64,000 nucleotides of DNA from Candidatus Vogelbacteria bacterium (GCA_903878275.1 CAIRHC010000010.1:1604-65603), one strand, 5' to 3'. Shown: positions 3,357 through 63,693, counted from the first letter of the stretch. The notes: generated by a model not told the origin, from the letters alone. A program made the numbers and translations.

Positions 3357-3424
3357 CTTTACTAAATAATTTTGGTATGTTAGAAATAAATCGGAAATAT
3401 AAAAATAGAAAGGAGGTGATTTTT

Positions 3425-3619: not shown

Positions 3620-3632
3620 ATTGCAATTTCAT

Positions 3633-3672
3633 CCCACACGAGCGCTTGCGCTCGTGTGGGATTTATTTTAAA
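3633..3672 (+). terminator. Rho-independent terminator CCCACACGAGCGC-TT-GCGCTCGTGTGGG plus ATTTATTTT
   Basis: 13-bp perfect stem plus T-run. It sits between convergent genes: the small ORF on + and argS on -. Confidence 0.75.
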
Positions 3673-3674
3673 TT

Positions 3675-5411: not shown

Positions 5412-5455
5412 AGGCAAGGACAGAATACCACAAATCCCCACTTTTTTCAAAAAAA

Positions 5456-5881: not shown

Positions 5882-5942
5882 CTTGAAATTTTAGCACTTC
5901 TCTGGCAGGATTTAAACAGATGCCCTTAACCAAAGGAGAAAA

Positions 5943-6203
5943 ATGATGCTGAAATCCATTGACGAAGAAATTAAAGTTCGGGAATTGACCGATTTGGCAA
6001 CGAAGTATGACTGTCAAACCTTGATCCATATCCCGAACGAGGAGCGAAATAACTTCTGGCAAAAACTCGAACTACTCAACCCAGAAAAAATCCTGGCAGG
6101 ACCAATCTTTTGCAAGGAGCAGGATGGTGGCTTTATTTGCCACTACACGGCTTACGTTCTCAACGAGAACGGCACGAAGATTTACTTCTTTTTCCGTTTT
6201 TGA
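5943..6203 (+). CDS. Hypothetical small protein (86 aa)
   Basis: SD AAAGGAGAAAAATG. Followed by hairpin GGCGCTCGTC-CACCAGA-CGAGCGCC plus T-rich tail. No known motif. Confidence 0.5.
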   Translation: MMLKSIDEEIKVRELTDLATKYDCQTLIHIPNEERNNFWQKLELLNPEKILAGPIFCKEQDGGFICHYTAYVLNENGTKIYFFFRF

Positions 6204-6220
6204 AACCAGAGCAAACCACC

Positions 6221-6258
6221 GGCGCTCGTCCACCAGACGAGCGCCTATTATTTTCGCA
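6221..6258. terminator. Bidirectional hairpin terminator between the small ORF (+) and glyA (-)
   Basis: Stem GGCGCTCG(TC)/(GA)CGAGCGCC followed by TATTATTTT. It abuts the glyA stop. Confidence 0.65.
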
Positions 6259-7426
6259 AAATCTGATCTATGCTTTGAGCAATTTTTATAAAATCTTTTT
6301 CTTTTTTACCGCGCGTTGTTTCGGCGGCAGTCCCAAGTCGCAAACCCGATGGATCAGCCGGATTGCGAACGTCAAACGGAATCGTATTTTTATTTACAAT
6401 AATTCCCTCTTTTTCCAATCTCGCACTCGCTTCTTTACCAGATAATTTACCGCTAGTTGATTCCACCACATCAATTAAGAGCAAGTGATTATCGGTTCCG
6501 CCAGAAACAATCCGCCAACCAAGTTTTTTTAATTCTTGCGCCAAAGTTTTGGTATTAACGATAATTTGCTTAGAGTATTTTTTAAATTCTGGCGTCATTG
6601 CTTCTTTAAGTGCCACCGCAATTCCAGCAATTTGATTTATGTGTGGTCCACCTTGCAAACCCGGGAAAACAGCTTTGTCGATTTTTTTATTTAATTCTCG
6701 TTTATCAATTCGCGAAAAAATCATTCCCGATCGCGGACCACGCAAAGTTTTATGAGTCGTGGTTGTTACCATGTCAGCATACGGAAATGGTGAAGAATGA
6801 ACCCCGCCTGCCACTAAACCAGCGATATGCGACATATCCACCATCAGATAAGCCCCGCAAGCATCGGCTATTTCGCGAAATTTTTTCCAGTCAATTTTTC
6901 TCGGATAAGCAGTAAAACCAGCCACGATAATATCTGGCTTTTCTTTTAAGGCGATCTTTTTTATTTCATCATAATTTAATTGCTCGGTTTTTTTATCAAC
7001 GCCATAAGAAATTTGTTGCCAGAATTTTCCCGATGCTGATACTTTGTGACCATGAGTTAAGTGCCCACCGTGAGACAACTCCATTCCCATAATTTTACCA
7101 TTAGGCGAAACGAGAGCTAAGTAAACGGCTAAATTTGCCGGCGAACCAGACAAAGGTTGCACATTCACCGCCCATTTTCTCGAAGACAACTTAAATAATT
7201 TTAACGCCCAGTCAATGCAAAGTTTTTCCAATTCATCGACAATTTCATTCCCACCATAATAACGGGCGTCGGCATAACCTTCAGCGTATTTATTAGTAAA
7301 CACCGAACCAAGCGCCTCGAGTACATCTTTCGACACGTAATTTTCCGAGGCAATGAGGTTTATCACCTCTTTTTGCCTTTTCTCTTCAGCTTTTATAAGT
7401 TTTTCAATTTGTTTATCTTTCATCAC
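6248..7426 (-). CDS. glyA: Serine hydroxymethyltransferase
   Basis: 392 aa. SHMT motifs present: LIASENYVS, YAEGYADARYYGG, TTTTHKTLRGPRSG (PLP lysine region). Confidence 0.95.
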   Translation of the reverse strand: MMKDKQIEKLIKAEEKRQKEVINLIASENYVSKDVLEALGSVFTNKYAEGYADARYYGGNEIVDELEKLCIDWALKLFKLSSRKWAVNVQPLSGSPANLAVYLALVSPNGKIMGMELSHGGHLTHGHKVSASGKFWQQISYGVDKKTEQLNYDEIKKIALKEKPDIIVAGFTAYPRKIDWKKFREIADACGAYLMVDMSHIAGLVAGGVHSSPFPYADMVTTTTHKTLRGPRSGMIFSRIDKRELNKKIDKAVFPGLQGGPHINQIAGIAVALKEAMTPEFKKYSKQIIVNTKTLAQELKKLGWRIVSGGTDNHLLLIDVVESTSGKLSGKEASARLEKEGIIVNKNTIPFDVRNPADPSGLRLGTAAETTRGKKEKDFIKIAQSIDQILRK

Positions 7427-7554
7427 TTCTTCATACTAAAACAAAAACTCTGACTTGCCAAACTGTCAAGGTTTGCTAGTATCGAATACAGAGAGTAATT
7501 AGTTCTCCGTCAACCAACTAACCCTGTTTTGTTTACAAAAGAAAGGAGCTACAG

Positions 7555-8457
7555 ATGTTCAAACTAAAACCTTATGAGGAAAGAACGCCGGATCGACAAT
7601 ATCAGGATTTGCTACGATATGTCGTCGATAACGGCAAATGGAAAAAGAATACTAACCAGGGCTTACCGGCTCTAACCGTATTCCGTCCGCCTATTCAGTT
7701 GCGCTACGACCTACAAAACGGTTTTCCACTTATCACCGAACGCCGAATTAGTTTTTGGCGTAAGGCGGTCGGCGAAATATTCGCCTTCGTCAACGGTGCA
7801 ACCACAACCAAAGAACTCGAAGCTTTTGGTTGTGATTGGTGGAGCACTTGGGCGACCAAAGAAAATGCCGAGAATGTCGGTCTCGAAGAAGGACAACTAG
7901 GAAACTTCGCTTCTTATGGAGCAGCGTTCCATCATTTTCCAACACCCAACAAACCCGAGGGTTTTAATCAGTTCGAAGCGTTGGTGCTCGGGCTGAAACA
8001 AAAACCTTGGTCACGAACGAATCTGATTTCGCCGTGGGTGCCGTACTTCGCTTCGGAGTTCGGTAAGCGGCGAGTGTTTTGTGCCCCGTGCCACGGTTGG
8101 ATAAACTGCCACGTCCACGACGGGATTTTAGATCTCGCTATGGACCAACGCTCGGCTGATTTAATTATCGGAGTACCAGCCAACTTGATTCAGTACTCGG
8201 TATTACTTTTAGCCTTGGCGGAAGTGACAGGTTTGATTCCCGGTGAATATATCCACACCTTTGTGGATGCTCACATCTACGCCAACCAGATGGAAGCCGT
8301 AGCAGATATATTAGACCGTGAGCCACTTCGTCTACCGACGGTAAAGATTGTTGATCCAGAAAAAATAAACAGTCTCTTCGATTTTCGAACGCAGCATTTC
8401 GAAGTTTCCGACTATCACCCACACCCACCAATCAGCGATATTCCGGTGGCAGTTTAA
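7555..8457 (+). CDS. thyA: Thymidylate synthase ThyA-family protein, divergent
   Basis: The catalytic core is retained: GFPLITERR, CAPCH (nucleophile Cys), DQRSADLIIGVPANLIQYS (Asn retained), DAHIYANQ. The E. coli R21 and R127 equivalents are not obvious. SD AAAGGAG upstream. Followed by folA after a 10-nt gap. Confidence 0.8.
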   Translation: MFKLKPYEERTPDRQYQDLLRYVVDNGKWKKNTNQGLPALTVFRPPIQLRYDLQNGFPLITERRISFWRKAVGEIFAFVNGATTTKELEAFGCDWWSTWATKENAENVGLEEGQLGNFASYGAAFHHFPTPNKPEGFNQFEALVLGLKQKPWSRTNLISPWVPYFASEFGKRRVFCAPCHGWINCHVHDGILDLAMDQRSADLIIGVPANLIQYSVLLLALAEVTGLIPGEYIHTFVDAHIYANQMEAVADILDREPLRLPTVKIVDPEKINSLFDFRTQHFEVSDYHPHPPISDIPVAV

Positions 8458-8467
8458 GGAGAAAAGA

Positions 8468-8971
8468 ATGCTAAACATTGTCGTAGCCATAAGTCTGAAC
8501 GGCGTCATCGGGCGACAAGGAAAATTACCGTGGAACCTGCCAAGTGATTTACGGCAATTCCGCGATATAACGATCGGTCACGCCGTAATAATGGGTCGCA
8601 AGACTTATGAGTCACTACCTAATCGCTACCGACCCCTACCGAACAGAGAGAACATTGTTCTTTCAAGAAAACGAGACCTGATTGTTCCGAGCGGGATAGT
8701 CTGCCGGACTCTCGACCAAGCTCTAAGTTCGGCTTTGTCGATTCAACGGAAATACATAATCGGCGGTGAAGAAATTTTTCGCCAACTTTTACCGATCACC
8801 GACCAGTTGATCGTGACCGAGGTTCAGATCGTCATCAAAAACGGTGATGCTTTTTTCCCCCAAATTGATAGTGACGACTGGCAAATCGTCGGACAAAAAG
8901 CTCCAAAACAGGAAGAAGGTGATGAATTCCCTTACGCCAAAAAAGTTTATTGGCGTAAACGAAAAACTTAA
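8468..8971 (+). CDS. folA: Dihydrofolate reductase
   Basis: MLNIVVAISLNGVIGRQGKLPWNLPSDLRQFRDITIGHAVIMGRKTYESLP is the DHFR signature. Tightly coupled downstream of thyA. Confidence 0.9.
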   Translation: MLNIVVAISLNGVIGRQGKLPWNLPSDLRQFRDITIGHAVIMGRKTYESLPNRYRPLPNRENIVLSRKRDLIVPSGIVCRTLDQALSSALSIQRKYIIGGEEIFRQLLPITDQLIVTEVQIVIKNGDAFFPQIDSDDWQIVGQKAPKQEEGDEFPYAKKVYWRKRKT

Positions 8972-30022: not shown

Positions 30023-30063
30023 CTGAAAATGATAACATTTTTGTCGGATTTTAAAAATAAAGC

Positions 30064-30100
30064 CCCGCGAGCGCAAGCGCTCGCGGGGAAACAAAAAAAA
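30064..30100 (-). terminator. Terminator palindrome CCCCGCGAGCGCAAGCGCTCGCGGGG (identical to the copy at 3319) with U-tract on the minus strand
   Basis: Exact 26-nt repeat of the element at 3319-3344. Located after the dapA stop. The plus-strand flank TAAAAATAA gives a T-run for the minus-strand transcript. Confidence 0.75.
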
Positions 30101-47247: not shown

Positions 47248-47844
47248 TTATCGGCGATGGTCGCCGTGCCCCTGCCCACCAACTTGGTGGTTTTGGTGGT
47301 TTCCGCCACCTCCACCATTTTGCCGGTGGTTTTGGCTGGAGCGGTTTTGCGCGTCACGCCGGGCTTGGTCAGCCCGGTTTTGTGCGTCGCGCATTTGCTG
47401 GTCTGCGCGATTTTGGGCGTCGCGGACCATTTGGTCAGCCCGGTTTTGTGCGTCGCGCTGGGCTTGTTCACGACGATTTCGCTCGTCGCGATAAGCTTGT
47501 TCGTGACGAAGCTGTTCGTCACGACGCTGCTGTTCGCAACGCAACTGGTAGTCGCGATCAGGCACTTCCGTGTAAACCGGAACCGGTGTTACAACGACTG
47601 GGTCGCTGTAAACAACTTCCCGCCGAACAACAACCGGTGATGACTGCTGAACAATGACAGGTGTCCGTTCAACAATCACCGGCGGATTAATGATCGCCGA
47701 GGTGATTACCGCAGCTCCCAAAACCCCCAATCCCACACCGACCGCGATGTCGCGGTCTTTATGTCCATGACCAGCTTCTGCACTTGTCGCAAAAACCAGC
47801 GCCAACGCAATAAAAACAACAATGAATAAATTACTCTTCATAAC
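47248..47844 (-). CDS. Secreted low-complexity repeat protein
   Basis: Signal peptide MKSNLFIVVFIALALVFATSAEA. Four tandem RDAQNRADQ-type 11-aa repeats. Gln/Arg-rich. His/Gly-rich C-terminus NGGGGGNHQNHQVGGQGHGDHRR. The DNA is GC-rich with visible tandem repeats. Overlapping track ORFs in other frames are judged spurious. Confidence 0.6.
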   Translation of the reverse strand, partial: VMKSNLFIVVFIALALVFATSAEAGHGHKDRDIAVGVGLGVLGAAVITSAIINPPVIVERTPVIVQQSSPVVVRREVVYSDPVVVTPVPVYTEVPDRDYQLRCEQQRRDEQLRHEQAYRDERNRREQAQRDAQNRADQMVRDAQNRADQQMRDAQNRADQARRDAQNRSSQNHRQNGGGGGNHQNHQVGGQGHGDHRR

Positions 47845-48077
47845 GACCTCTTTTCTGAACCCATGGGGTTCTTGCTTTTCAGTGTTCAGGCCCAATGCCT
47901 TTATCCTCTTGTAGTATAGCAAATTATACCACGTTTGTCAATAGCTAAAAAACCTTTATTTTAAGACTTATTTTCTGGTTTTCCACAAAAAAGCCTTGGC
48001 TAATAAAAATTTTATTTTTACTCGCCCCAGCTGATTTACTACTCACTAATTAATTTTAAATTACGAAACTCTAACGA

Positions 48078-48156
48078 GTGTCATTCCCGCGAAGGCGGGA
48101 ATCCAGACTAGTTCGATAAAACCTGGATTCCCGCCTTCGCGAGAATGACAGAGTGA
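48078..48156. repeat. 27-bp inverted repeat GTCATTC(C/T)CGCGAAGGCGGGAATCCAG around a 17-nt spacer; each arm holds a CCCGC-GAAG-GCGGG hairpin
   Basis: Seen directly. One mismatch between the arms. Part of a 500-bp structure-rich intergenic region upstream of pilB. Confidence 0.7.
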
Positions 48157-48446
48157 AAGCAAGAATGACAATAAAGAAAAGTGAAAATGACCGAAAAACA
48201 CAGAGAGCTAAGTTTTTAAATTTAAAATTTTAATCGCCCCAGTGGAATAGCCAAGCTAAATTTGCTTCGGCAAATTTATTCCACCGGGCGAACTGCTCTG
48301 CGGAGCAGTTCGAGTTACCCACAGTTTTAAATTATTTTTGTTGGCGAAAAAATTTTTAAGTGCTAGGAATATTGTTAGCGGAAATGAAATTTAAAAAATT
48401 CTGAATTGTTGAATTTGTTTTTGTTTTTAAAAAAGGTAAAATTAAA

Positions 48447-53276: not shown

Positions 53277-53763
53277 CAAAACAGAAGTAATTATTTTAGG
53301 TATTGATCCGGGTTACGACCGGCTCGGTGTGGCGGTAATTAAAAAAGCTAATCCCAAAGATGAGGTGCTTTTTTCTACCTGCCTCGAAACTAATTCAAAA
53401 GATGAGTATGCCGATCGTCTTGTTTCTTTGGGAAATGAGTTAGAAAAAATTTTAGACGACTGGCAGCCGACGACTAGCGGTATCGAAAAACTTTATTTTA
53501 CAGTCAATCAAAAAACAGCAATGAAGGTCGCTGGGGCAATTGGGATGATTTCTTATTTAATTAAAAAAAGAAATATCCCACTTGCCGAATACACCCCACT
53601 CCAAATAAAAAGTTGTGTCACTGGTTTCGGTGGTGCCAACAAAAATCAGATGATTAGTTTGATTCCCAAACTAATAAAAATTGAAAAAAATATAAAATAC
53701 GACGACGAATTCGATGCGATTGCGGTGGCGATTACTCATTCGGTTTTGCTAAAAAACTACTAA
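53266..53763 (+). CDS. ruvC: Crossover junction endodeoxyribonuclease RuvC
   Basis: ILGIDPGYDRLGVAVI (catalytic Asp), ...EKLYF..., DEFDAIAVAITH. Confidence 0.85.
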   Translation: MMNNKTEVIILGIDPGYDRLGVAVIKKANPKDEVLFSTCLETNSKDEYADRLVSLGNELEKILDDWQPTTSGIEKLYFTVNQKTAMKVAGAIGMISYLIKKRNIPLAEYTPLQIKSCVTGFGGANKNQMISLIPKLIKIEKNIKYDDEFDAIAVAITHSVLLKNY

Positions 53764-53805
53764 CTCCTAGAATTGTTTTTTAAATTAAAAAATGAAGCGA
53801 GGCAA

Positions 53806-53889
53806 TTCTTGTTTTGGGGGTTTCGAGGCTGTCGAGCCGAGAATTTCAGGATTTTTTAAGCTTCAAAAAATCTGTACCCTAAACAAGAA
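53806..53889 (+). repeat. 84-nt structured repeat element, copy A: 13-bp outer stem TTCTTGTTTTGGG/CCCTAAACAAGAA enclosing a conserved 58-nt core
   Basis: The core GGTTTCGAGGCTGTCGAGCCGAGAATTTCAGGATTTTTTAAGCTTCAAAAAATCTGTA contains hairpins GATTTTTT-AAGCTTC-AAAAAATC and GGCT-GTCG-AGCC. The reverse complement of this element occurs at 61170-61253 with 3 core substitutions and a different but still complementary outer stem. Confidence 0.75.
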
Positions 53890-53940
53890 AGTGGCGAGTG
53901 AACATTTTTTAATTTAAAAATAATTCACCTAACCACCATT

Positions 53941-53949
53941 TTATCCACA
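53941..53949 (+). promoter_or_regulatory. Perfect DnaA box TTATCCACA
   Basis: Exact 9-mer consensus in the AT-rich ruvC-tyrS intergenic region, 52 nt from repeat copy A. Confidence 0.45.
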
Positions 53950-54215
53950 ATTCAATTTTTAATTACTTGCAATTTTTTGGTGATATGTTAAAAATTTAAA
54001 GATTATCAAAATCAATTAAAAAAGGTCGCTCTAATTTTACTTAAATAAGCTTTTTATAAAAAAAATAAAATGGACGATGATGCTGTTCTAAAAGGGACTA
54101 GCCCTGACGATGATTTCAACGAAGAAGATGTTTTAGGCGAAGACGATTTAGATGAAGGATTAGACATAGATTTACCAGAGGGAGAAGGAGAAAGCTGGTA
54201 ATTTTTTTGGCTTTT

Positions 54216-54266
54216 AAAAACAGCCCGGATTTTTGCTAAGCAAAAATCCGGGCTGTTTTTGTTTTC
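54216..54266. terminator. Bidirectional terminator with a 20-bp stem AAAACAGCCCGGATTTTTGC-TAA-GCAAAAATCCGGGCTGTTTT
   Basis: Very long perfect hairpin with flanking A/T runs immediately after the tyrS stop. Confidence 0.85.
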
Positions 54267-54270
54267 CATC

Positions 54271-55461
54271 TTAAACTTCAATCTTTACAAAACGATGCTT
54301 CCCCACCTTAACTAGACAAGTCTTTAAAATTTCAAAAAACGGATCAGTTATTTTTTCTTCGCCGTTTATTTTAATCGAACCACCTTCAACTAAACGACGA
54401 AAATCTGAATTAGAAGAAACCACTTTTTCTCTCACTAAAACATCCATTAATTTTTCTCCAACCACCGCTTTAATTTCTTGTGCTTCGTCAGGGTTTTCTT
54501 TTTTTTGAAAAACCGACACAAAATAATCTCGAGCCTTGTCGGCTTCTTTTTTATTGTGATACATTACCACAATTTCCCAAGCCAATTTCATTTTAATATC
54601 CCGCGGATTCGCACCAGACACTAAATCCTGTTCTATTTTTTTAATTTCTACCAACGAAAGATCAGTACAAAGAGTAAAATATTTAATAATTAATTCATCC
54701 CGCAACGACATAATCTTACCAAACATATCATTTGGTTCGTCAGTAATATTTATCACATTACCCCAACTCGTTGACATTTTTCGCCCGTCAGTCCCTTCGA
54801 GCATTTGATAAGTCAAAACATCTTGCTCTGGTTGACCATAATATTTCTGAATTACTCGCCCAGCTTTAAGATTAAACAATTGATCAAGTCCAGCAATTTC
54901 AATATCCGCCTTGACCATCACCGAATCATAACCCTGCAAAAGCGGGTAAAGAAACTCACGCAAAGAAATCTCCTCGTTTTTTTCATAACGATCTTTAAAA
55001 TTCCGCCGAGCCAGCATTTGCTGAACCGTAAAACTTTCAGCAATGTCAGCAATTTCTCTAAAATTCAATTTAGCCAACCACTTACTATTGTAAACAAATT
55101 TAGTCTTTTTAAGATCAAGGATCTTACCGACATTTTTTTTATAATTTTTTATATTTTCCAAAACATTTTCTTTGGTCAACATCGGTCTTTTTCCAAGTTT
55201 ATCTGATGGATCACCAATTTGAGCGGTAAAATCTCCCAAAATAAAAACGACTTGATGACCCAATCTTTGAAAATCACGGAGCTTTCGTAAAGGAATCGCT
55301 CGTCCGAGATGGATATTGGGACCAGTCGGATCCACGCCAAGCTTCACTATCTGCGGTTTACCAGATAAAAGTTTTTTCTTGAGACTTTCTAAAACAAAAA
55401 CATCTTCCACGCCACGAGTTAAAATCTCATTAATTTTTTCTTCATTATTTAGCTTATTCAT
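54271..55461 (-). CDS. tyrS: Tyrosyl-tRNA synthetase
   Basis: From ATG 55461: MNKLNNEEKINEILTRGVEDVF..., HIGH-type PTGPNIHLG, KMSTS (KMSKS), C-terminal S4 domain. SD AAGGA upstream. The longer track ORF adds a non-homologous basic leader and overlaps the PBP gene. Confidence 0.92.
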   Translation of the reverse strand: MNKLNNEEKINEILTRGVEDVFVLESLKKKLLSGKPQIVKLGVDPTGPNIHLGRAIPLRKLRDFQRLGHQVVFILGDFTAQIGDPSDKLGKRPMLTKENVLENIKNYKKNVGKILDLKKTKFVYNSKWLAKLNFREIADIAESFTVQQMLARRNFKDRYEKNEEISLREFLYPLLQGYDSVMVKADIEIAGLDQLFNLKAGRVIQKYYGQPEQDVLTYQMLEGTDGRKMSTSWGNVINITDEPNDMFGKIMSLRDELIIKYFTLCTDLSLVEIKKIEQDLVSGANPRDIKMKLAWEIVVMYHNKKEADKARDYFVSVFQKKENPDEAQEIKAVVGEKLMDVLVREKVVSSNSDFRRLVEGGSIKINGEEKITDPFFEILKTCLVKVGKHRFVKIEV

Positions 55462-55516
55462 CCTTTTACCATAACACATATTCTCTTTTGTTACCACTTG
55501 TGTTACCATTTGTTTC

Positions 55517-57769
55517 ATGGCAAATAAACATAAAAAAATCAACTTTTTCTTGCGTCTTTTAATCGTTTTTCTTGTTTTTACCTTTGTGGCTGGTGGTTTT
55601 TCCACAATTTGGGCTATTTCACTACCAATCCCCGATTTTGAAGCTTTTTTCCAAAAAGAAGTCGCCAATAAATCCACCAAAATTTACGAGCGGACAGGTA
55701 AAATCCTTCTTTATGATGTGACCGGTATCAGGCGAACCAATGTCCCATTTTCACAAATTCCCGATGTTATTAAAAAATCAACACTCGCCATAGAAGATGC
55801 CACTTTTTACCAACACGGGGGAATTAAATTAAGTTCTATCGCTCGGGCTTTTTTGGTCAACACTTTCGCTGGTGGAGTAAAACAAGGTGGCTCAACTATC
55901 ACCCAGCAAGTAGTAAAAAACTCTCTTTTAAGTAGCGATCAAACCATTGTCAGAAAAGTCAAAGAAGCTATTTTGGCGGTCAAAATGGAAAAAACAATGA
56001 CCAAAGATGATATTTTTAATGTTTATCTAAATCAATCTCCTTATGGTGGAAATATTTATGGTGTCCAAGAAGCCGCCAAAGCTTATTTTCAAAAAGATAT
56101 TCGTGATATCGACTTAGCTGAAGCAGCTTATCTCGCCGCAATACCTAAAGCACCAAATTATTATTCCCCTTACGGTGCAAATAAAGACAAATTAGATGCT
56201 CGAAAAAATCTCGTTTTAACCAGAATGGCTGAAGTTGGTTTTATCACTAAAGACCAAATGCAAAAGGCTCAAGCCGAAAAAGTTACTTTTTATGAAAAAA
56301 TCAACCAAGGCATCAAAGCCCCTCATTTTGCTTATTATATTTTAGATCAACTGGAGAAAAAATATGACAAAGCCACCCTCGAAACGAATAGTTTTAAGGT
56401 TACCACCACTATCGACTGGCCACTCCAACAAAAAGCCGAGGAAATAGCTAAAAAATTCGGTGATTCAAATGAAAAAACCTATCACGCCCAAAACAACGGC
56501 ATTGTCGCAATTGATCCAAAAAATGGTGATATTTTAGCGATGGTTGGTTCTCGTGATTATTTTAATCAAGCGATCCAAGGTAATTTCAATATTACCACCG
56601 CTCACCGCCAACCAGGATCATCTTTTAAGCCCTTCGTTTACGCCACAGCGTTTAATAAAGGTTATACCGACAAAACTATCGTCTTCGACCTAAAGACTGA
56701 ATTTAACACCAATTGTAGCCCAACGGGCAAACCAATAACTCCAGGTGCTGTTTGTTATATGCCAGTAAACTACGATGGTTTATATGTCGGACCAGTCACT
56801 CTTAGAAACGCTCTAGCTCAATCGAGAAACATTCCCGCAATTAAAGTTTTGTATTTAGCCGGCGTTAACGATTCTCTTGATACCGCCGAAGCGATGGGTA
56901 TCACTAGTCTAGGAACCAAAAATCAATACGGTCTGACTTTGGTCCTTGGAGGTGGTGAAGTCTCTCTTCTTGAAATGACTAGTGCTTACGGTGTTTTTGC
57001 TAATGACGGCGTCCGAGTGCCGTTTGAAGGTATTCTAAAGATTGAAGATCCAAACGGTAAAGTAGTCTTCGATAAAACTATCACCCCAACAAAAGTTTTA
57101 CCACCAAATACCGCTCGTTTAATTTCTAATATTTTATCTGATGCACAAGCCCGTGTCCCCGCTTACAGTATCGATTCACCTCTTTCTTTTGGTAGCCGAG
57201 ATGTCGCCGTAAAAACTGGTACCACGAATGATTATAAGGATGCTTGGATTATTGGTTACACACCAAATATTGTCATCGGTGCTTGGGCAGGAAATAACGA
57301 CAATACACCGATGGGTAAAAAAGTGGCTGGTTATATTATTGCTCCGCTTTGGCACGCCGTAATGGCAGAAGCGATCGCCAGTCGCCCCGTAGAAAATTTT
57401 ATTCCACCAGTTGTTAATTATGACGGCTTAAAACCAGTCTTACGTGGTTTTTGGCAAGGTGGCGATATTATTTCCACCAACGCCTTTTCTACAACCACGG
57501 GTCAATCAGCTGGCACCGCTGAATATATTACTAAAAATGTTCATTCTATTCTCTACTGGTTAGACAAAAATAATCCACTCGGTCCCGCTCCAAGCAATCC
57601 CGAGAGTGATGGTCAATTCTCTTTATGGGAATATCCAATTCAAATTTGGGCTAAGAAAAATGACGCAAAAACAGAAAATCTTTTAAGAATTGGCACAAAA
57701 AGTGACATTCAAAACCAAAATGTCACTAATTCTAATTTATTTGGCTCATCAACGACAATAAGTTTTTAA
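55517..57769 (+). CDS. Class A penicillin-binding protein (bifunctional transglycosylase/transpeptidase, PBP1A-like)
   Basis: N-terminal TM. GT51 motifs EDATFYQHGGI and GGSTITQQ. Transpeptidase SSFKP (SxxK) and KTGTT. Confidence 0.9.
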   Translation: MANKHKKINFFLRLLIVFLVFTFVAGGFSTIWAISLPIPDFEAFFQKEVANKSTKIYERTGKILLYDVTGIRRTNVPFSQIPDVIKKSTLAIEDATFYQHGGIKLSSIARAFLVNTFAGGVKQGGSTITQQVVKNSLLSSDQTIVRKVKEAILAVKMEKTMTKDDIFNVYLNQSPYGGNIYGVQEAAKAYFQKDIRDIDLAEAAYLAAIPKAPNYYSPYGANKDKLDARKNLVLTRMAEVGFITKDQMQKAQAEKVTFYEKINQGIKAPHFAYYILDQLEKKYDKATLETNSFKVTTTIDWPLQQKAEEIAKKFGDSNEKTYHAQNNGIVAIDPKNGDILAMVGSRDYFNQAIQGNFNITTAHRQPGSSFKPFVYATAFNKGYTDKTIVFDLKTEFNTNCSPTGKPITPGAVCYMPVNYDGLYVGPVTLRNALAQSRNIPAIKVLYLAGVNDSLDTAEAMGITSLGTKNQYGLTLVLGGGEVSLLEMTSAYGVFANDGVRVPFEGILKIEDPNGKVVFDKTITPTKVLPPNTARLISNILSDAQARVPAYSIDSPLSFGSRDVAVKTGTTNDYKDAWIIGYTPNIVIGAWAGNNDNTPMGKKVAGYIIAPLWHAVMAEAIASRPVENFIPPVVNYDGLKPVLRGFWQGGDIISTNAFSTTTGQSAGTAEYITKNVHSILYWLDKNNPLGPAPSNPESDGQFSLWEYPIQIWAKKNDAKTENLLRIGTKSDIQNQNVTNSNLFGSSTTISF

Positions 57770-57785
57770 AAAACTTATCCTCATA

Positions 57786-57830
57786 AAATAATCCCGACTT
57801 TAATGTAGTAAAGTCGGGATTATTTTATTT
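57786..57830. terminator. Bidirectional terminator AATAATCCCGACTTT-AATGTAGTA-AAGTCGGGATTATT
   Basis: 15-bp stem after the PBP gene. Confidence 0.75.
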
Positions 57831-58077
57831 CTAATACTATTTTTTCATCAAAAATCGCTTCTATCTCTTTTAAGATTTCTTGTTTATTTAAAATAATCGC
57901 CAATTTAATCTTCGGTGAAGTTTTTAAGATTAAATTTTTATTTTTTAATTCAATTTGTTTTGAATTAACCTCTATCCCAATTTTTTGTGAAATTATTTTT
58001 ACAATTTCACTTTTAACTAATTTAGATTTATCAATCTTTTGCGCGTATTTATCTAAAAATTTACCGATTAGATCCAT
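57820..58077 (-). CDS. Hypothetical small protein (85 aa) downstream of dnaN, possibly YaaA-like (S4-like)
   Basis: Position after dnaN matches the dnaA-dnaN-yaaA order. The Lys/Ile-rich sequence has no clear motif. Confidence 0.4.
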   Translation of the reverse strand: MDLIGKFLDKYAQKIDKSKLVKSEIVKIISQKIGIEVNSKQIELKNKNLILKTSPKIKLAIILNKQEILKEIEAIFDEKIVLEIK

Positions 58078-59193
58078 CTATTTATTGATTGGCATAATAA
58101 TATAGCGGAAACTTTGGTCGTGGTTTTTTTGAATCAATAATGGTTTGTTTTTATCGGAAAAATTAAACATAATATCTTCTTTATTTATTACTGCCAAACA
58201 ATCAAGAATATATTTTACATTAAAACTAATATCAATTGGCTCGCCTTTTATTTTTGTAATTAAAGAAATATCATTATCCCCCACATCTTGATTACTAGAT
58301 TTTATTTCCAAAAGATTTTCTGCTGGCACAAGATGTAAATCAATTTGATTAAATTTATCAGAAAAAATATTGGAAAGTTTCAAGACATTCATTATTTCAT
58401 CTTTTCCGATAATTAATTCGGTTTTAAAAGTCGACGGCATAATTTGTTTATAATCAGGATAAACACCGTCAATAATCCGTGAGGTTAGGTGAATTGAATC
58501 AGAAAAAATCGAAATTTGGTTTTTATTGGAGTTTATTTTAAGATTTCCTTCAATATTTTCGAAAATTCGGTTAATTTCAGTGATATTCTTCAAAGGGATA
58601 ATCAAGGAATTTATCTCACTATTTTTTTCTTTGATTGTAATTTTTTTCTCGGCTAAACGAAAAGAATCAGTCGCCACAAAAACCAATTCATTATCTAGCG
58701 CATAAAGATAAACACTAGAAATTTCTGGTTTAATATCAGAGATTGCTCCAGCAAACATTACCGATTTTAAACCAGCAATAAAATCAGTGCCTTTTATATT
58801 AAAACTGTTTTCATTTTCCACTCGCGGAATAATCGGAAAATCTTCAGCTGCAAAACTTTTTATTGTGGTATTAGTCGATGAAGTGGAAATTTTTAAATTA
58901 TTGTTATCGGACGATAAGACAACTTTGTTTTCATTATTTATGTTATTTAAAAAATTTGCCAAAACTTGCGCATTGACCGCTACAATTCCATCTTCTTCCA
59001 CCTTGGCTGGTAATTCTATCTCCAAACCAATTTCTAAATTTGTCGCTTTTATATTTAAAACTTTATTTTTCGCTTCCAATAAGACAGTTGATAAAATCGG
59101 CAAGGTTAGATTTCTACCAGTCACCTTTTCAGCTAAACCAATCGCTTCTTTTAATTTATCTTTTAGGCATTCGATCTTCATAGTAGTATTCAA
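58078..59193 (-). CDS. dnaN: DNA polymerase III beta sliding clamp
   Basis: 371 aa, three-domain clamp pattern. N-terminal MKIECLKDKLKEAIGLAEKV...LPILSTVLLEA. Confidence 0.9.
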   Translation of the reverse strand: MNTTMKIECLKDKLKEAIGLAEKVTGRNLTLPILSTVLLEAKNKVLNIKATNLEIGLEIELPAKVEEDGIVAVNAQVLANFLNNINNENKVVLSSDNNNLKISTSSTNTTIKSFAAEDFPIIPRVENENSFNIKGTDFIAGLKSVMFAGAISDIKPEISSVYLYALDNELVFVATDSFRLAEKKITIKEKNSEINSLIIPLKNITEINRIFENIEGNLKINSNKNQISIFSDSIHLTSRIIDGVYPDYKQIMPSTFKTELIIGKDEIMNVLKLSNIFSDKFNQIDLHLVPAENLLEIKSSNQDVGDNDISLITKIKGEPIDISFNVKYILDCLAVINKEDIMFNFSDKNKPLLIQKNHDQSFRYIIMPINK

Positions 59194-59434
59194 TAATTAG
59201 TTTTTTGTATAAATTAAGACTTTTTATTATTAGTAGTTGTGGATATGTGTATAAATCTATTTTAGCTTTATTTATAAGGTGTTTATTGGTGAATATTTTT
59301 TGATAATTGTGGGTAAAATTGTTTATTATTGATTATTACTTTTTATCTTTAAATATTTTTTAATTTACTTAACATTTTATTAATAGTTTTTACACAGGGT
59401 TATTAAATGGTTGTTAACATATTTATCCACAAAT
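59194..59434. promoter_or_regulatory. Candidate oriC: DnaA-box cluster and AT-rich unwinding region between dnaA and dnaN
   Basis: Boxes TTATCCACA (59423-59431, 9/9), TTGTGGATA (59237-59245, reverse complement, 8/9), TGTGGGTAA (59308-59316, reverse complement TTACCCACA, 8/9), plus the >80% AT stretch CTTTTTTATCTTTAAATATTTTTTAATTTACTTAACATTTTATTAATAG. Confidence 0.6.
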
Positions 59435-60802
59435 TTAAGAGTTATAAATAAGTGAACGAATTTGGTCTATCTCTTGGGTTAATAAATTATCGGTCTTTAT
59501 GTCTTTCTTGATTTTTTCATAAGCGTGGATAACAGTTGTGTGATCTCTTCCGCCGAGCTTTTGACCAATATACGGATAAGAAGTACTAAAATCCTCTCGG
59601 AGAATATACATAATAATTTGTCGTGGTTTGACCACCTCTTTTCGGCGGGTTTTTTCGTAAATAATTTTTTCTTCAATGTTGTAATAATTGGCGACAATAC
59701 TGGCGACATCCTTGATAGAAATAGTCTTCTTTGGCTTCGTACTGTTCTTGATTAAGAGTTTAACCTCTTGGATAGAGAGAACCCGCTTTTTGGTTTGAAT
59801 TTGGCATATAAGCGAATTTAGAGCCCCTTCGAGTTCACGAATACTGTCTTGAATAATCGAGGCTAAATACTCTAAAACCTCTTCATCAATAGTCACACCA
59901 CTTAATTTAATTTTAGTCTTTAGAATCGCTAAGCGTGATTCATAATCAGGCTTAGAAATATCAATAATCATTCCCCCTTCAAAGCGAGACCTCAATCTTT
60001 CCTCTAGGTTTGGGATAAATTTAGGTGATTTGTCTGATGAAAAGATAATTTGCTTGTTGTTTTCGGAAAAATTATTAAATAAATGGAATAATTCCTCTTG
60101 GAATTTTTCTTTATTGGAAAAAAATTGGACGTCATCCATTATTAATAGGTCGTAACGGCGATATTTTTCTTTAAATTGGTTTGGGCGGTTGTTTTGAAGG
60201 GCGTTTAGGTAATCAATGCCGAAATTTTCGGAGGTAACATAAAAAACGTTCTTATTTGGGTAGTTATCTTTAATATAATTGCCTACCGCTTGAATCAAAT
60301 GGGTTTTACCGAGGCCAGTACTACCATAAATAAACAGCGGATTGTAAATCATCCCAGGATTTTTGATAATAGCTTGGGTGGCAGCGTAAGCAACGTCATT
60401 AAATGACCCGACTAGGTAGTTATCGAAGGTATATTTTGGGTTTAAATTGTTTTCTTTGTTGATATAAAGGTCTTTTAAGCCTAAATCATTTGGGTGAGCG
60501 GTCTTTATTGAGGTGTCGTCATCTTTTGGTTTGGAATGATCGTCGATTTTTATGATTACATATTCAATAGACCTTATTTCCGAGTCTAATTCTCGTAAGG
60601 CTTTTATGATAAACTTGTGATATTTGTTTGATAGCCAGTCTTTAACAAAAGCATTGGGCACGCTAATGAACACAACCCCCTCCTCGTTCTTTATTATATG
60701 AGTATGCTTGAACCAAGTACCAAAGCTGGCTTTCGAAATCGTCAATTCTATTTCATTCAGAGCATTGTCCCAAAGTTTTTTGTTATCGATGAGGCTCTCC
60801 AT
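59435..60802 (-). CDS. dnaA: Chromosomal replication initiator protein DnaA
   Basis: Walker A GSTGLGKTHL, LLIMDDVQF, sensor motifs, C-terminal DNA-binding domain KLGGRDHTTVIHA. Confidence 0.95.
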   Translation of the reverse strand: MESLIDNKKLWDNALNEIELTISKASFGTWFKHTHIIKNEEGVVFISVPNAFVKDWLSNKYHKFIIKALRELDSEIRSIEYVIIKIDDHSKPKDDDTSIKTAHPNDLGLKDLYINKENNLNPKYTFDNYLVGSFNDVAYAATQAIIKNPGMIYNPLFIYGSTGLGKTHLIQAVGNYIKDNYPNKNVFYVTSENFGIDYLNALQNNRPNQFKEKYRRYDLLIMDDVQFFSNKEKFQEELFHLFNNFSENNKQIIFSSDKSPKFIPNLEERLRSRFEGGMIIDISKPDYESRLAILKTKIKLSGVTIDEEVLEYLASIIQDSIRELEGALNSLICQIQTKKRVLSIQEVKLLIKNSTKPKKTISIKDVASIVANYYNIEEKIIYEKTRRKEVVKPRQIIMYILREDFSTSYPYIGQKLGGRDHTTVIHAYEKIKKDIKTDNLLTQEIDQIRSLIYNS

Positions 60803-60999
60803 AGTGTTTAATTATTCAGATTATATTAGCTGTGGATAATAATAGCAAACTTTACAAAATTGTTTATAACTAGTGGATTAGTTTAATTAAAAGATTGAAA
60901 TTTGAATTTTAAATAAAATATTTCCACCCAGTATTTTAGGTCTAGATATAAAGTTTTTGGCTCTTGATTAATTTAGAAATTTGGTCTATAATCTCAAAT
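60803..60999. promoter_or_regulatory. dnaA-rpmH divergent control region with a DnaA box and a candidate rpmH promoter
   Basis: TGTGGATAA at 60828-60836 (reverse complement TTATCCACA, 9/9). TTGATT-N17-TATAAT at 60964-60992 places a TSS at about the rpmH ATG. Confidence 0.5.
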
Positions 61000-61140
61000 A
61001 TGTCATTTACCTATAAACCAAAGAATAAAAAGCGAGCCAGAACTCATGGTTTTTTGGCTCGGACCAAGACTACCGCCGGACGCAACGTCATTAAGCGACG
61101 AATGGCTAAAGGTAGAGCTAAACTCACTGTTTCGGTGTAA
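61000..61140 (+). CDS. rpmH: 50S ribosomal protein L34
   Basis: 46 aa [46 protein letters not shown]. Too short for the ORF track. Confidence 0.9.
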
Positions 61141-61169
61141 AGTGAGAATTATAAATTTCTCCTCGTTGC

Positions 61170-61253
61170 CACCTTTTTAGGGTACAGATTTTTTGAAGCT
61201 TAAAAAATCCTGAAGTTTTCGGCTCGACAGCCTCAAAACCCCCTAAAAAGGTG
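61170..61253 (-). repeat. 84-nt structured repeat element, copy B (inverted relative to copy A), in the rpmH-rnpA spacer
   Basis: Plus strand CACCTTTTTAGGG-[core]-CCCTAAAAAGGTG is a perfect 13-bp outer stem. It extends to ~18 bp with GTTGC...GCAAC. The core is the reverse complement of copy A's core with 3 substitutions. Confidence 0.75.
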
Positions 61254-61292
61254 CAACCACGTCAAAATTTATAATTCCCAATTAAAACCAAA

Positions 61293-62451: not shown

Positions 62452-63693
62452 TTAAATCACCACTGGAAGCAAGAAAGATTGAAGAGAATTGTCTTTTTTG
62501 TTAATTCCATAAAGAGTATCCCCGTTTGGGGTCGTATTTAATTCAACCAAATCGTACTCCCCTTTTATCGGTGCCACTAGCTTCACGTTTTTGTTTAAAG
62601 CATCGACTAGCCAAATATCATCATTGAAGCCAATTTGTCCTTGATACCAAAGATCAGGAAAATTTCCAATCGGAATAGTTCTTGGCACGGCGCAATAAGC
62701 GTAGTTGGTATTTATCCAAACACATTTTTCGGGTAATGTCGCAATGCTTAATTTATCGGCTGATTCCTTTGTGACATCATAAAGATATAGCTCTAATTTA
62801 CCAAGATTGGTTTTGGAATAAAGAATTTTTTTGGCATCAGGGCTGGTGAGAGTGGTCAAGCCGCTGATATTACCGAGAATTTTATTGGAAACCAAACTTT
62901 TGGTGTTAAAAAAGTGTAAATAACCAGGCACGGTCGCTGACGGTTTTGTTTGAAGAGTAACCGTCTCTTTTTCTGGCCAGCTGGCGTCCCAATCACTAAA
63001 AGGTGTGCTTAAAATCGCTTTGGGAGTTCCTAGGTCTGGTGTATCTAAATATCCAACCGCTAGATTATTTTCTATTTTTAGATAGAAAACACTATCTTGC
63101 GTCGGATTGGTAGTAAAACTGTAAATACTGTTGCTTAGTGATTGTAAATTAATTTCATTTTCGCTAAATAAATTGGTCGAGGTGGCTTGAGAGAAAAAAC
63201 CTAATTCGTTGTCGATCTGACCATTTTTTAGCATTTGGAGAAATAAATAACGATTACCTTTGTTTTTACCAATAAAAGCTTTTTTGATGCCAGTGATGGT
63301 AGTATTGGTCAATCTTTTGTTTTTTGACTGATTTATTTGATAAAGATTACCTTTTGATTTACTGATAAAAAACACGTCAGAAGAGGAGCTGTTTTTTAGA
63401 CTAAAAATACTGGCAACATTACTTAAAAGCACATCGCTATTTATTTGATTGTCGGTAACTACTGGTGTGGTGTCTGGGTTGCCGGTACTTGTCCCGGTAT
63501 TATTGCTGGTTGTGGCGGTGATTACTGGTGTTTTATTTTCTGCTACGGGAAAAAAATTGCCAACTAGCGGAGCTGGTTTGGTGATGATTGCACTAGCTGG
63601 ACCTTTGTATTGAAGATAAAAAATATAACCAAGGACTCCCACCGTCGAGGTGAAAATAAGAATGGCGAATGTAGCTATTATTTTTTTCCACAT
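62452..63693 (-). CDS. Hypothetical membrane-anchored extracellular protein (413 aa)
   Basis: N-terminal TM MWKKIIATFAILIFTSTVGVLGYIF. Ser/Thr/Asn-rich linker. The C-terminal domain has beta-rich character. No motif assigned. Confidence 0.55.
   Translation of the reverse strand: MWKKIIATFAILIFTSTVGVLGYIFYLQYKGPASAIITKPAPLVGNFFPVAENKTPVITATTSNNTGTSTGNPDTTPVVTDNQINSDVLLSNVASIFSLKNSSSSDVFFISKSKGNLYQINQSKNKRLTNTTITGIKKAFIGKNKGNRYLFLQMLKNGQIDNELGFFSQATSTNLFSENEINLQSLSNSIYSFTTNPTQDSVFYLKIENNLAVGYLDTPDLGTPKAILSTPFSDWDASWPEKETVTLQTKPSATVPGYLHFFNTKSLVSNKILGNISGLTTLTSPDAKKILYSKTNLGKLELYLYDVTKESADKLSIATLPEKCVWINTNYAYCAVPRTIPIGNFPDLWYQGQIGFNDDIWLVDALNKNVKLVAPIKGEYDLVELNTTPNGDTLYGINKKDNSLQSFLLPVVI

Follow-up and report, generated by a model that had tools for sequence, protein, structure and literature searches.

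Two inverted repeats around dnaA

Two inverted copies of a structured repeat lie on either side of dnaA in a genome of Candidatus Vogelbacteria, which raises the question of whether they serve the replication origin or came to be there by other means. Within the window (the whole stretch of DNA analysed, 64,000 nt), copy A is found at 53806–53889 on the + strand, between ruvC and tyrS, and copy B, its reverse complement, at 61170–61253, between rpmH and rnpA, as given in a preliminary description of the locus. Both were recovered by blastn within the window, as a 68-nt match of 95.6% identity (E = 2.4e-27) with no third copy in the 64 kb, and by a covariance model, which scored copy B at 102.9 bits and copy A at 101.6 bits, against 15.8 bits for the next match. 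Pfam bore out the gene labels across the region (ruvC, tyrS, PBP, dnaN, dnaA, rpmH, rnpA and yidC), and the GC-skew minimum falls at ≈59–60 kb, so that the pair does flank the dnaA/origin region, as had been proposed.

The 58-nt cores of A and B are alike at 55 of 58 positions and contain two internal hairpins. All three differences fall in the lower stem of hairpin 1, where two of them represent a compensatory change from C-G to U-A. The 13-nt closing stems are unlike in sequence, yet both are paired, with one bulge in copy A and perfectly in copy B. The preliminary description, which already gave the 55 of 58 identity and the unlike but paired stems, overlooked that both copies sit inside much longer hairpins, of about 132–157 nt. 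The 84-nt folds of both copies gave z-scores of −3.2 to −5.7, and the 148-nt folds reached −39 to −60 kcal/mol (z −5.6 to −8.7). Copy A lies between the ruvC stop codon (53761–53763) and the promoter of a small acidic ORF, and copy B between the rpmH stop codon (61138–61140) and the rnpA ATG (61293). The better-folding strand, here called the plus strand, is the + strand of the window in copy A and the − strand in copy B. The features of the two elements are as follows.

53760..53766, + strand: copy A, candidate left target-site duplication CTAACTC, includes the ruvC stop codon; suggestive only
53770..53926, + strand: copy A, full element, GAATTG...TAATTC, ≈157 nt; long hairpin of −46.4 kcal/mol, z −5.6; covariance model 101.6 bits
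53777..53794, + strand: copy A, outer stem 5′ arm, 18 perfect bp with 53903–53920
53806..53818, + strand: copy A, inner closing stem 5′ arm, TTCTTGTTTTGGG
53819..53876, + strand: copy A, conserved 58-nt core, three-way junction
53822–53843, + strand: copy A, hairpin 1, UUC-GA-GGCU-GUCG-AGCC-GA-GAA
53849–53873, + strand: copy A, hairpin 2, 9-bp stem with AAGCUUC loop
53877..53889, + strand: copy A, inner closing stem 3′ arm, CCCTAAACAAGAA
53903..53920, + strand: copy A, outer stem 3′ arm, partner of 53777–53794
53929..53935, + strand: copy A, candidate right target-site duplication CTAACCA; suggestive only
61136..61142, + strand: copy B, candidate degenerate target-site duplication TGTAAAG, includes the rpmH stop codon; suggestive only
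61146..61277, − strand: copy B, full element, GAATTA...TAATTC, ≈132 nt; −60.0 kcal/mol, z −8.7 (− strand); covariance model 102.9 bits
61146..61158, − strand: copy B, outer stem arm, GAATTATAAATTT, 13 perfect bp with 61265–61277
61170..61182, − strand: copy B, inner closing stem arm, CACCTTTTTAGGG on the + strand
61183..61240, − strand: copy B, conserved 58-nt core
61186–61210, − strand: copy B, hairpin 2
61216–61237, − strand: copy B, hairpin 1
61241..61253, − strand: copy B, inner closing stem arm, CCCTAAAAAGGTG on the + strand
61265..61277, − strand: copy B, outer stem arm, AAATTTATAATTC, partner of 61146–61158
61281..61287, + strand: copy B, candidate right target-site duplication ATTAAAA; suggestive only

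Both sites are empty in the closest relatives

The three closest relatives (L001, L003 and L005; DnaA 77–79% identical) share the synteny yidC-rnpA-rpmH / dnaA-dnaN-85aa-PBP-tyrS-ruvC, and their ori segment is oriented as it is in the window. The core is absent from both sites in all three. The rpmH-rnpA spacer, 152 nt long in the window, measures 5–14 nt in these relatives, and in the alignment ≈150 nt are missing between ruvC and a conserved DnaA box. Since gene order is the same and the sites are empty, both window copies are insertions. The idea of an attenuator in the rpmH-rnpA operon, raised earlier, fails because the relatives have no spacer there.

A dispersed family of MITE-like elements

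A 21-nt core pattern was searched against species-representative genomes and metagenomes. Of the 60 genome stretches that it matched, 58 proved to be true copies, which lie in 31 Patescibacteria genomes. The metagenomes yielded more than 120 matching stretches, and the covariance model added further divergent copies. At least 17 loci were found in one Nomurabacteria genome (MFTH01). In genomes other than that of the window, the core is thus the multi-copy, genome-wide repeat that the preliminary description had named as telling against its own proposal.

Perfect 7-bp direct repeats stand at a fixed offset from 11 of 14 near-identical full-length copies in MFTH01, the one genome from which clear target-site duplications come; the candidates in the window are degenerate, matching at 4–5 of 7 positions. 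Those of copy A (5 of 7) lie at offsets that do not fit the model exactly and are proposed by analogy with the 7-bp Nomurabacteria duplications, while those of copy B (4 of 7) stand where the Nomurabacteria copies lead one to expect them (7 bp + 3 nt + GAATT). Elements measure 132–157 nt in the window and 105–195 nt elsewhere, with no ORF inside. The arms, 25–55 nt long, are ≈80% complementary in all copies, and a degenerate terminal inverted repeat, consensus TGAATTACGAAACTC, is common to copies in several genomes; it also bounds other small elements with different interiors. Neither a transposase nor an orphan terminal-repeat pair around an ORF was found in ≈1 Mb of loci near copies, and no protein family recurred near the copies in the loci examined.

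Across the family, copies neighbour ftsZ, rplJ/L, ssb, secY and other genes, and some spacers are reused across genomes, namely that after ftsZ (8 loci) and those near rplJ/rplL, ssb and secY-adk. Eight genomes have a copy in the ftsZ-trxB spacer; their flanks and outer arms can be aligned, but two of the eight carry the interior in the opposite orientation. A single genome, too, has the interior both ways round with respect to the terminal triplets. The canonical copies, the two in the window among them, lie between genes. Divergent sister copies occur in frame inside genes, one in mnmA, where it separates the PRC-barrel domain from the C domain (L015, 1614–1700), and one in dus (L059, 5202–5287).

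The family combines small size (below about 400 bp) without a transposase gene, terminal inverted repeats, a fixed-length duplication (in MFTH01), and dispersed copies with empty sites, all features by which MITEs are recognized. We consider it likely that copies A and B were inserted separately, as members of a MITE-like family of palindromic elements, mobile but non-autonomous, that is widespread and multi-copy in the Patescibacteria. The element consists of three parts: degenerate terminal inverted repeats, fast-evolving arms that pair, and a nearly invariant 58-nt centre that forms a three-way junction. Recombination between the arms, or template switching from one arm to the other, can invert the interior without moving the element. 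Apparently, the repeats represent an undescribed MITE-like (ERIC/RPE-like) family in these ultra-small bacteria.

Conservation and strand asymmetry of the core

An alignment of 110 distinct copies, which had been fitted to the model, has two-sided changes at 28 of 30 base pairs. Of its cells, 90.4% are paired, compared with 78% in shuffles, and it gives a covariation score of 0.305 (versus 0.097). Covariation is strong in all four helices. The apical stem of hairpin 1 alternates between GGCU/AGCC, GCGC/GCGC and GGCC/GGCC, with the flanking GA..GA retained, and the purine-purine internal loops are conserved and fit one strand only; that of hairpin 1 is GA/GA, and the one beside the junction is GNA/GRA. 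Around this centre the arms vary widely, with 80 distinct arm types in which pairing is kept. At shared sites, the core is 91–100% identical, compared to 70–84% for the flanks, in 5 of 6 pairs. The earlier suggestion that the secondary structure is selected was borne out by these pairing and covariation figures. Selfish mobility alone does not account for the near-invariance of the core across Patescibacteria classes, nor for its conservation at shared sites.

In searches of the window and six loci with Rfam 15, only tRNAs reached the gathering threshold; we could therefore dismiss all of its families as candidates, self-cleaving ribozymes included. At E values up to 10, only generic long-hairpin microRNA models appeared, the best being mir-5014 with 28.5 bits against a threshold of 101. 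An intrinsic terminator was also discarded, as the terminator scan was blank at both copies and there is no U tract; the 3′ arms are A-rich beside the core.

The two strands are not equivalent. The core helices contain 28 G:U and 5 A:C pairs, and the inner arms 218 purine-purine and 34 pyrimidine-pyrimidine mismatches. In 96 of 104 copies the plus strand forms the more stable fold, the median advantage being 5.7 kcal/mol. Between co-directional genes it is antisense in 51 cases and sense in 18 (p = 9e-5), and it lies on the C-rich strand in 59 cases versus 21 (p = 2.5e-5), mostly as the leading-strand template rather than the exposed lagging-strand template. Both window copies share the majority orientation. 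Spacing to the neighbouring genes is alike in both orientations, and the arms show no strand-specific promoter.

Alternative explanations

The inverted placement around dnaA and dnaN had suggested that the pair is functionally tied to the origin, as a protein-binding or structural bracket of oriC or as a device that inverts the ori segment. In line with this, four of the 58 genome loci have dnaA within their 8 kb (≈0.7 expected), the tyrS-ruvC spacer is occupied in L062 as well, and in L125 the element is located just beyond the tyrS 3′ end; the four other genomes with a copy within 8 kb hint at a weak regional preference near dnaA. However, both copies are missing from three relatives with the same origin-region synteny, the family is dispersed over 31 genomes, and not one of 79 independent metagenome loci contains dnaA. 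Copies near dnaA elsewhere use different spacers and orientations, and most copies adjoin unrelated housekeeping genes. The inverted orientation of the pair is already predicted by the ≈3:1 strand bias acting on opposite replichores. The ori segment retains the ancestral orientation, without sign of inversion, and the longest unbroken identity between A and B is only ≈39 nt, a poor substrate for homologous recombination. The search of relatives and other genomes thus upheld the structural conservation of the core but not its positional link to the origin; a functional tie is most improbable, and the position beside dnaA is coincidental. Inversion on a smaller scale, by a recombinase that flips the interior and so changes the expression of neighbouring genes (an inverton), would account for the two interior orientations seen at the same site between species and, relative to the terminal triplets, within one genome. 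We give it very little credence, since no invertase is linked to the copies in the loci examined, the interior has no evident promoter, and flips at a site were observed between species, not within one population. Moreover, a segment of ≈60–70 bp between arms of 30–50 bp has the size expected of passive hairpin-loop inversion. Minute inversions of this kind occur in chloroplast non-coding DNA, where a short segment between inverted arms likewise flips in place between related lineages; those are ordinary hairpins, whereas here a mobile family carries a conserved, structured loop.

A functional structured RNA, spread by the hairpin and retained by the host, either as a small RNA or as an mRNA element that acts in cis on processing, stability or termination, is a possible but rather doubtful reading of the core, and one that overlaps with the mobile-element explanation without excluding it. 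The covariation of all four helices, the one-stranded purine-purine loops, the excess of G:U over A:C, the greater conservation of the core than of the flanking genes at shared sites, and the occupation of identical spacers in many genomes all argue for it. Against it, the better-folding strand is antisense to the flanking genes in 51 of 69 cases, so that read-through transcripts would mostly carry the weaker form; the arms lack a visible strand-specific promoter, no Rfam family or U-tract terminator was matched, gene spacing is indifferent to orientation, and the closest relatives lack the element at both window sites. G-T pairs and sheared G-A pairs also stabilize DNA hairpins (DNA parameters), and the strand asymmetry is therefore no proof of RNA. 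Transport as single-stranded DNA by an HUH/Y1 enzyme (REP/REPIN with RAYT, or an IS200/IS605-derived system), with the core hairpins as the recognition structure, would also suit an architecture conserved on one strand and an orientation biased relative to the replication strand, as is known for IS608-type elements. REPINs, too, are hairpin-forming, vertically inherited and long-persisting. Yet they have two conserved REPs, with a 5′ GTAG-type motif, as stem and a variable loop, the opposite of the hypervariable stems and conserved centre seen here, and come with a RAYT gene; no recurring RAYT or TnpA-like gene was found near the copies in the loci examined. IS200/IS605-derived elements have sub-terminal hairpins and a TnpA(Y1) or TnpB partner, and the loci examined held no such partner gene close to the copies. 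To our knowledge, neither REPINs nor IS200/IS605 elements make target-site duplications, and 7-bp duplications exist in MFTH01. The better-folding strand is, furthermore, mostly the leading-strand template. We rejected both the REP/REPIN and the IS200/IS605 candidates on these grounds, and consider HUH/Y1 transport improbable.

Comparison with known elements and a possible mechanism

MITEs are small, non-coding, multi-copy and intergenic, with terminal inverted repeats, target-site duplications and a long stem-loop (PMC3184786). The bacterial examples (Correia/CREE of Neisseria, RUP, Nezha) resemble the present element in being small non-coding hairpins with terminal repeats, duplications and intergenic copies. 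Ordinary MITEs conserve the termini, not the centre, whereas here it is the termini and arms that vary, around a centre that hardly changes between classes of a phylum; the duplication has a length of 7 bp and is not TA. ERIC is an imperfect palindrome of transcribed intergenic regions, conserved across genera above the selfish-DNA expectation, with a copy number that differs greatly among genomes and reported orientation-dependent effects on mRNA (PMC3184786). At ≈127 bp, it is conserved over its whole length and flanked by TA, while only the branched core is conserved in the present element, which belongs to a different phylum and has no sequence similarity to it. The Rickettsia palindromic elements (RPE, ≈105–146 bp) are known for in-frame sites inside protein-coding genes. 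They share with the present family the occurrence of palindromic repeats in small, reduced genomes, and the divergent sister copies in mnmA and dus are comparable; the canonical copies, however, are intergenic, and there is no sequence relation.

In the mobile-element explanation, a DDE-type transposase acting in trans would move the element by staggered cuts 7 bp apart, and in compact genomes perhaps only insertions at stop codons or in tiny spacers survive. The core may be a cis-acting folded single-strand module, either RNA or DNA, kept for the propagation of the element itself or for an acquired host role. Selection may disfavour the stable fold where it would form in the sense strand of an mRNA or in the template of the lagging strand.

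A second element in the window

The window also contains a different MITE-like element:

48052..48229, + strand: second MITE-like element, terminal repeat AATTTTAAATTACGAAACT / AGTTTTTAAATTTAAAATT, resembling the TGAATTACGAAACTC of the family

Its interior is a 28-bp GC-rich hairpin (48079–48150) in place of the core, and its kinship with the core family lies in the terminal repeat only. Separately, the terminator scan revealed a classical bidirectional terminator at 54215–54261.

Sequence and Fold of the Two Window Copies

The inverted pair reported in the preliminary description was recovered at the same coordinates, with copy B as the reverse complement of copy A. A blastn comparison within the window gave a 68-nt match between them at 95.6% identity (E = 2.4e-27), and no third copy was detected by blastn in the 64-kb window. 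The 58-nt interiors are near-identical, as had been described: all three differing positions lie in the lower stem of hairpin 1, and two of them make up an exchange of C-G to U-A. The 13-nt closing stems are indeed unlike in sequence between the copies, with pairing kept in both. What had been overlooked is that copies A and B are the tips of far longer hairpins, with perfect outer stems of 18 bp in copy A and 13 bp in copy B. The 148-nt folds of the copies have energies of -39 to -60 kcal/mol and z-scores of -5.6 to -8.7.

Elements and associated features in the window
53806-53889, + strand: copy A, between ruvC and tyrS
approximately 53770-53926: full element, copy A
61170-61253, - strand: copy B, between rpmH and rnpA
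approximately 61146-61277: full element, copy B
48052-48229: second MITE-like element, in the spacer separating divergent genes for a repeat protein and a PilB/T2SSE-like ATPase
53942-53950 and 54070-54201: DnaA box/small-ORF region between ruvC and tyrS, with equivalents in three relatives

Family Size and Distribution

Scanning a species-representative genome collection with a 21-nt core pattern gave 60 stretches, 58 of which were true copies, from 31 genomes labelled Nomurabacteria, Paceibacterota, Saccharibacteria and Taylorbacteria, plus a few bins labelled otherwise. The Saccharibacteria MAGs with the element include L016, L020, L044, L049 and L052. Metagenome contigs contained at least 120 stretches with the core pattern, and the matches listed included 80 further unique copies. 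The core had no match in viral contigs (IMG/VR, two patterns) or plasmids (PLSDB), and a phage or plasmid origin of the element was rejected on these grounds. Neither Rfam 15 nor the literature open to searching, with the core sequence itself included as a query, yielded a description of the element, and the family is apparently undescribed so far.

The canonical copies are all intergenic. The median distance from the core is approximately 31–35 nt to the upstream stop codon and approximately 50 nt to the downstream start, so that the arms take up the whole spacer. Recurrent neighbours are ftsZ, rplJ/rplL, ssb, secY-adk and tyrS. Patescibacteria have tiny, compact genomes that are generally thought to be poor in mobile elements; a phylum-wide mobile hairpin taking up entire spacers at ftsZ, ribosomal-protein genes, ssb, secY and rpmH-rnpA would have consequences for operon structure and genome assembly. 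One Nomurabacteria genome (RIFCSPHIGHO2_01_FULL_37_25, MFTH01), which has undergone a recent burst, carries the element at no fewer than 17 loci. On one of its contigs (L017, 5794-6410), two copies lie 426 nt apart, either side of a tRNA gene (6087-6158). A metagenome contig (L135, compared with L057 and L009) fuses, across the repeat, the left flank of one MFTH01 copy with the right flank of a different one, representing either an assembly chimera or real recombination between copies.

Evidence for Mobility of the Element

Fourteen full-length copies in MFTH01 are near-identical across the entire element, and 11 of them are bordered, at a constant offset, by perfect 7-bp direct repeats, giving the layout: target-site duplication (TSD) - 3 nt - TGAATTACGAAACTC ... 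GAGTTTCGTAATTCA - 3 nt - TSD. Such repeats are a signature of transposition with staggered cuts. Read after these copies, the degenerate 7-bp repeats at the window copies (CTAACTC/CTAACCA at copy A, which includes the ruvC stop codon, and TGTAAAG/ATTAAAA at copy B, which includes the rpmH stop codon) are no more than suggestive as candidate TSDs. The possibility that the arms are inverted copies of target DNA was rejected, because the burst copies have common arms but different duplications; it is also contradicted by the degenerate arm consensus of the family.

Clustering of the ORFs near copies revealed no protein family recurring beside them, suggesting that the element is non-autonomous. 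Apart from housekeeping neighbours, the clustering produced one artefactual group, made up of ORFs reading through the element, and a linked transposase was discarded as a candidate. A multi-copy family of 160–200-aa ORFs of the wHTH + Cas2-like (PaaX_M) type occurs 0.45–6 kb from repeats (L006, L026, L039, L065 (MFTH01), L022, L030 and L032), and is not consistently linked to them.

The terminal motif of the family also borders other small interiors, including that of the 48052-48229 element of the window, in which the terminal repeats resemble the motif (TAAATTACGAAACTC) and a 28-bp GC-rich hairpin (48079-48150) takes the place of the three-way-junction core. One terminal motif around several interiors fits a single type of transposase moving several types of cargo. 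Mobilisation of the element may be of the DDE type, which we propose with less assurance than the independent insertion of copies A and B discussed below. Other short GC-rich palindromes (e.g., CTTCGGCTCTGAGGGCCTCAGGCTCGAAG and CCTGCCTGCCGGCAGGCAGG) are nested in some copies, within hairpin 2 or at the junction (L010, L017 at 6220-6410, L058 at 1838-1952, L064, L071/L149 and L110), which points to several mini-hairpin repeat families in these genomes, inserting into one another.

Strand Asymmetry and Flipping in Place

The plus strand of the element, defined by the + strand of copy A (and hence the - strand at copy B), has 28 G:U against 5 A:C pairs in the core helices, and 218 purine–purine against 34 pyrimidine–pyrimidine mismatches in the inner arm, as scored in a model-fitted alignment. 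With RNA parameters it is the more stable strand in 96 of the 104 distinct copies, by a median of 5.7 kcal/mol, and with DNA parameters in 90 of them. Clear asymmetry is confined to the core helices, the inner arm (in that alignment) and the folding energies; in the long arms, symmetric scoring gave 36 G:T against 24 A:C, which was not significant.

Relative to co-directional flanking genes, the plus strand was antisense in 51 cases and sense in 18 (p = 9e-5), and it was on the C-rich strand in 59 cases versus 21 (p = 2.5e-5). Since the flanking genes are nearly all on the leading strand (48 of 50 informative cases), transcription and replication are inseparable as causes of this bias. Gene spacing did not differ between the element orientations. 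A plus-strand-specific promoter in the arms was dismissed (38 versus 35 TATAAT-like hexamers), as was a preference for the sense orientation where transcription units end, for which an apparent 12:4 ratio at convergent sites was an artefact of using an off-centre pattern as the origin for distances.

The orientation is not fixed at a given site. The terminal triplets of MFTH01 copies read, relative to the interior, either TCG..AAG or the swapped CTT..CGA. The ftsZ-trxB spacer carries the element at one and the same position in eight genomes (L065/L067/L112/L028 and four more loci), where it makes up the whole stretch from the ftsZ stop to the trxB promoter (TAGTGTATAAT). The flanks and outer arms align and are orthologous, but two of these genomes have an inverted interior, which evidently flipped by way of its own arms. 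Because the interior flips in place, orientation is labile over evolution, and selection or some biased mechanism must therefore uphold the 3:1 bias.

The Origin Region

Pfam confirmed the gene labels ruvC, tyrS, PBP, dnaN, dnaA, rpmH, rnpA and yidC, and the GC skew changes sign near 59–60 kb of the window; copies A and B thus do flank the dnaA/origin region. The best matches to DnaA, at 79% identity or less, were from Patescibacteria (Paceibacteria, 'Vogelbacteria'). In the three closest relatives (L001, L003 and L005), gene order and orientation are the same as in the window on both sides of dnaA, and neither blastn nor the covariance model detected a copy of the core in their contigs. The distance from the rpmH stop to the rnpA start is 152 nt in the window versus 5–14 nt in the relatives, and the relatives lack the approximately 150 nt of copy A, which in the window are situated in the interval separating the ruvC stop from a conserved DnaA box and promoter (alignment A3). 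With both sites empty in relatives, the copies are lineage-specific insertions, and we consider it probable that they represent two independent insertions of a MITE-like family.

The preliminary description had offered several explanations in which the position of the copies was itself functional. A device bracketing the origin would agree with an excess of copies near dnaA, and dnaA was indeed present in 4 of the 58 genome loci versus approximately 0.7 expected, in differing spacers (rnpA-yidC, two genes past yidC, and tyrS-ruvC). However, it was present in none of the 79 independent metagenome loci among the matches listed, against a similar expectation of approximately 0.7, so that the enrichment, suggestive in the genome set, is taken as unconfirmed. 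Relatives with the same synteny lack the copies and the family is dispersed, and the device, an attractive but wrong notion for this window, is not supported. Inversion of the origin segment by the two repeats fares no better, since the segment between them is in the ancestral orientation, and an attenuator in the rpmH-rnpA operon is unsupported, given the short spacer in the relatives. The inverted arrangement of A and B is sufficiently explained by the family-wide strand bias, since each copy has the orientation that prevails on its replichore.

In the ruvC-tyrS interval, the window and all three relatives retain a perfect DnaA box (TTATCCACA) together with a promoter-like TTGCAA...TATG box, upstream of a very acidic 43-aa ORF (MDDDAVLK...). 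This ORF may be a small gene under DnaA control, approximately 5.5 kb from dnaA. In the relatives (positions 1-8600), a type IV secretion/conjugation-like cluster adjoins yidC, comprising PrgI, TraC-like, VirB4/TraG P-loop ATPase and pilin-like genes. Beside it is a 413-aa ORF without a Pfam match, whose putative counterpart at the right end of the window (62452-63693) agrees with it in size and position.

Structure and Conservation of the Core

The proposed structure, a closing stem and two hairpins, was 87.8% paired in 43 distinct copies versus 80.7% in shuffles, with changes on both sides in 16 pairs. In a larger set of 110 distinct copies, which was gathered with a covariance model and aligned by fitting to that model, 28 of 30 pairs had changed on both sides, and 90.4% of cells were paired versus 78% in shuffles. 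The covariation score in this set was 0.305 versus 0.097 in shuffles, none of the 500 shuffles reaching the observed score, and pairing dropped to 38–65% when the 3' partners were slid by one to three columns. These both-side changes and the covariation, obtained from the model-fitted alignment, bear out the earlier claim that the secondary structure is selected.

Hairpin 1 of the core contains a GA/GA tandem, the junction bases GGU / UUCA / GUA are invariant, and a GNA/GRA loop is situated beneath the junction. In divergent copies, the apical stem of hairpin 1 is GGCU/AGCC, GCGC/GCGC or GGCC/GGCC, with GA..GA retained on either side of it, as is a G-N-C-G loop. Hypervariability marks the arms, of which there are 80 distinct types, but these have a degenerate consensus in common and always keep their pairing. 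At shared, vertically inherited sites, core identity was 91–100% versus 70–84% for the flanking genes and 70–93% for the arms, a pattern present in five of six pairs. The core is therefore either under constraint once inserted or kept uniform by homogenisation between copies.

Because it evolves more slowly than neighbouring genes, the core stands as a concrete candidate, either as a new structured RNA/DNA motif or as the site recognised by a transposition system, in organisms with almost no known non-coding biology, and its role is the interesting part of the finding. Searches of both copies and six loci against Rfam yielded only tRNAs at the gathering score, and only sub-threshold microRNA-like hairpins at E up to 10. 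A hammerhead-like junction was checked by eye and dropped, since the core motifs do not fit. Conceivably, the core is an unrecognised functional nucleic-acid module (a structured RNA, a protein-bound folded ssDNA or a small ribozyme), with the mobile hairpin as its carrier through the phylum, purifying selection at fixed sites such as ftsZ-trxB, and orientation reset by flipping; we regard this combined reading as rather doubtful. For the ssDNA version, the binding partner could be a conserved host or element protein.

Comparison with Known Systems

MITEs are small and have terminal inverted repeats, target duplications, no transposase and a long stem-loop (PMC3184786). The element shares all of these hallmarks; the one further MITE feature, a parent insertion sequence, was not found in the approximately 1 Mb of loci covered. 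It is unlike ordinary MITEs in that its centre, rather than its termini, is near-invariant across classes of the phylum, and in that this centre forms a three-way junction that covaries and has purine loops specific to one strand. It works in a like manner to ERIC and Correia repeats. The REPIN/RAYT system, an IS200/IS605 derivative, an intrinsic terminator and a known Rfam family were also considered, and the element matched none of them.

Divergent sister copies were found in frame within genes, in mnmA (L015, 1614-1700) and dus (L059, 5202-5287). These have a GC-richer core (GA-GCGC-GACG-GCGC-GA) and add approximately 29–30 residues; in MnmA, the insertion falls precisely at the boundary of the PRC-barrel and C-terminal domains. 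The sister copies recall the RPEs of Rickettsia, which are inserted in frame inside protein-coding genes.

Other Repeats in the Window

A near-identical GC-rich palindrome, CCCCGCGAGCGCAAGCGCTCGCGGGG, followed by a T-run, is found at 3319-3354 and 30053-30088, with a variant, CCCACACGAGCGCTTGCGCTCGTGTGGG, at a third site (3627-3672); these look like reused intrinsic terminators. Four tandem 33-nt repeats at 47341-47491, within a 224-aa ORF (47248-47922, - strand), encode 11-residue Q/R/D-rich units (QRDAQNRADQ...).
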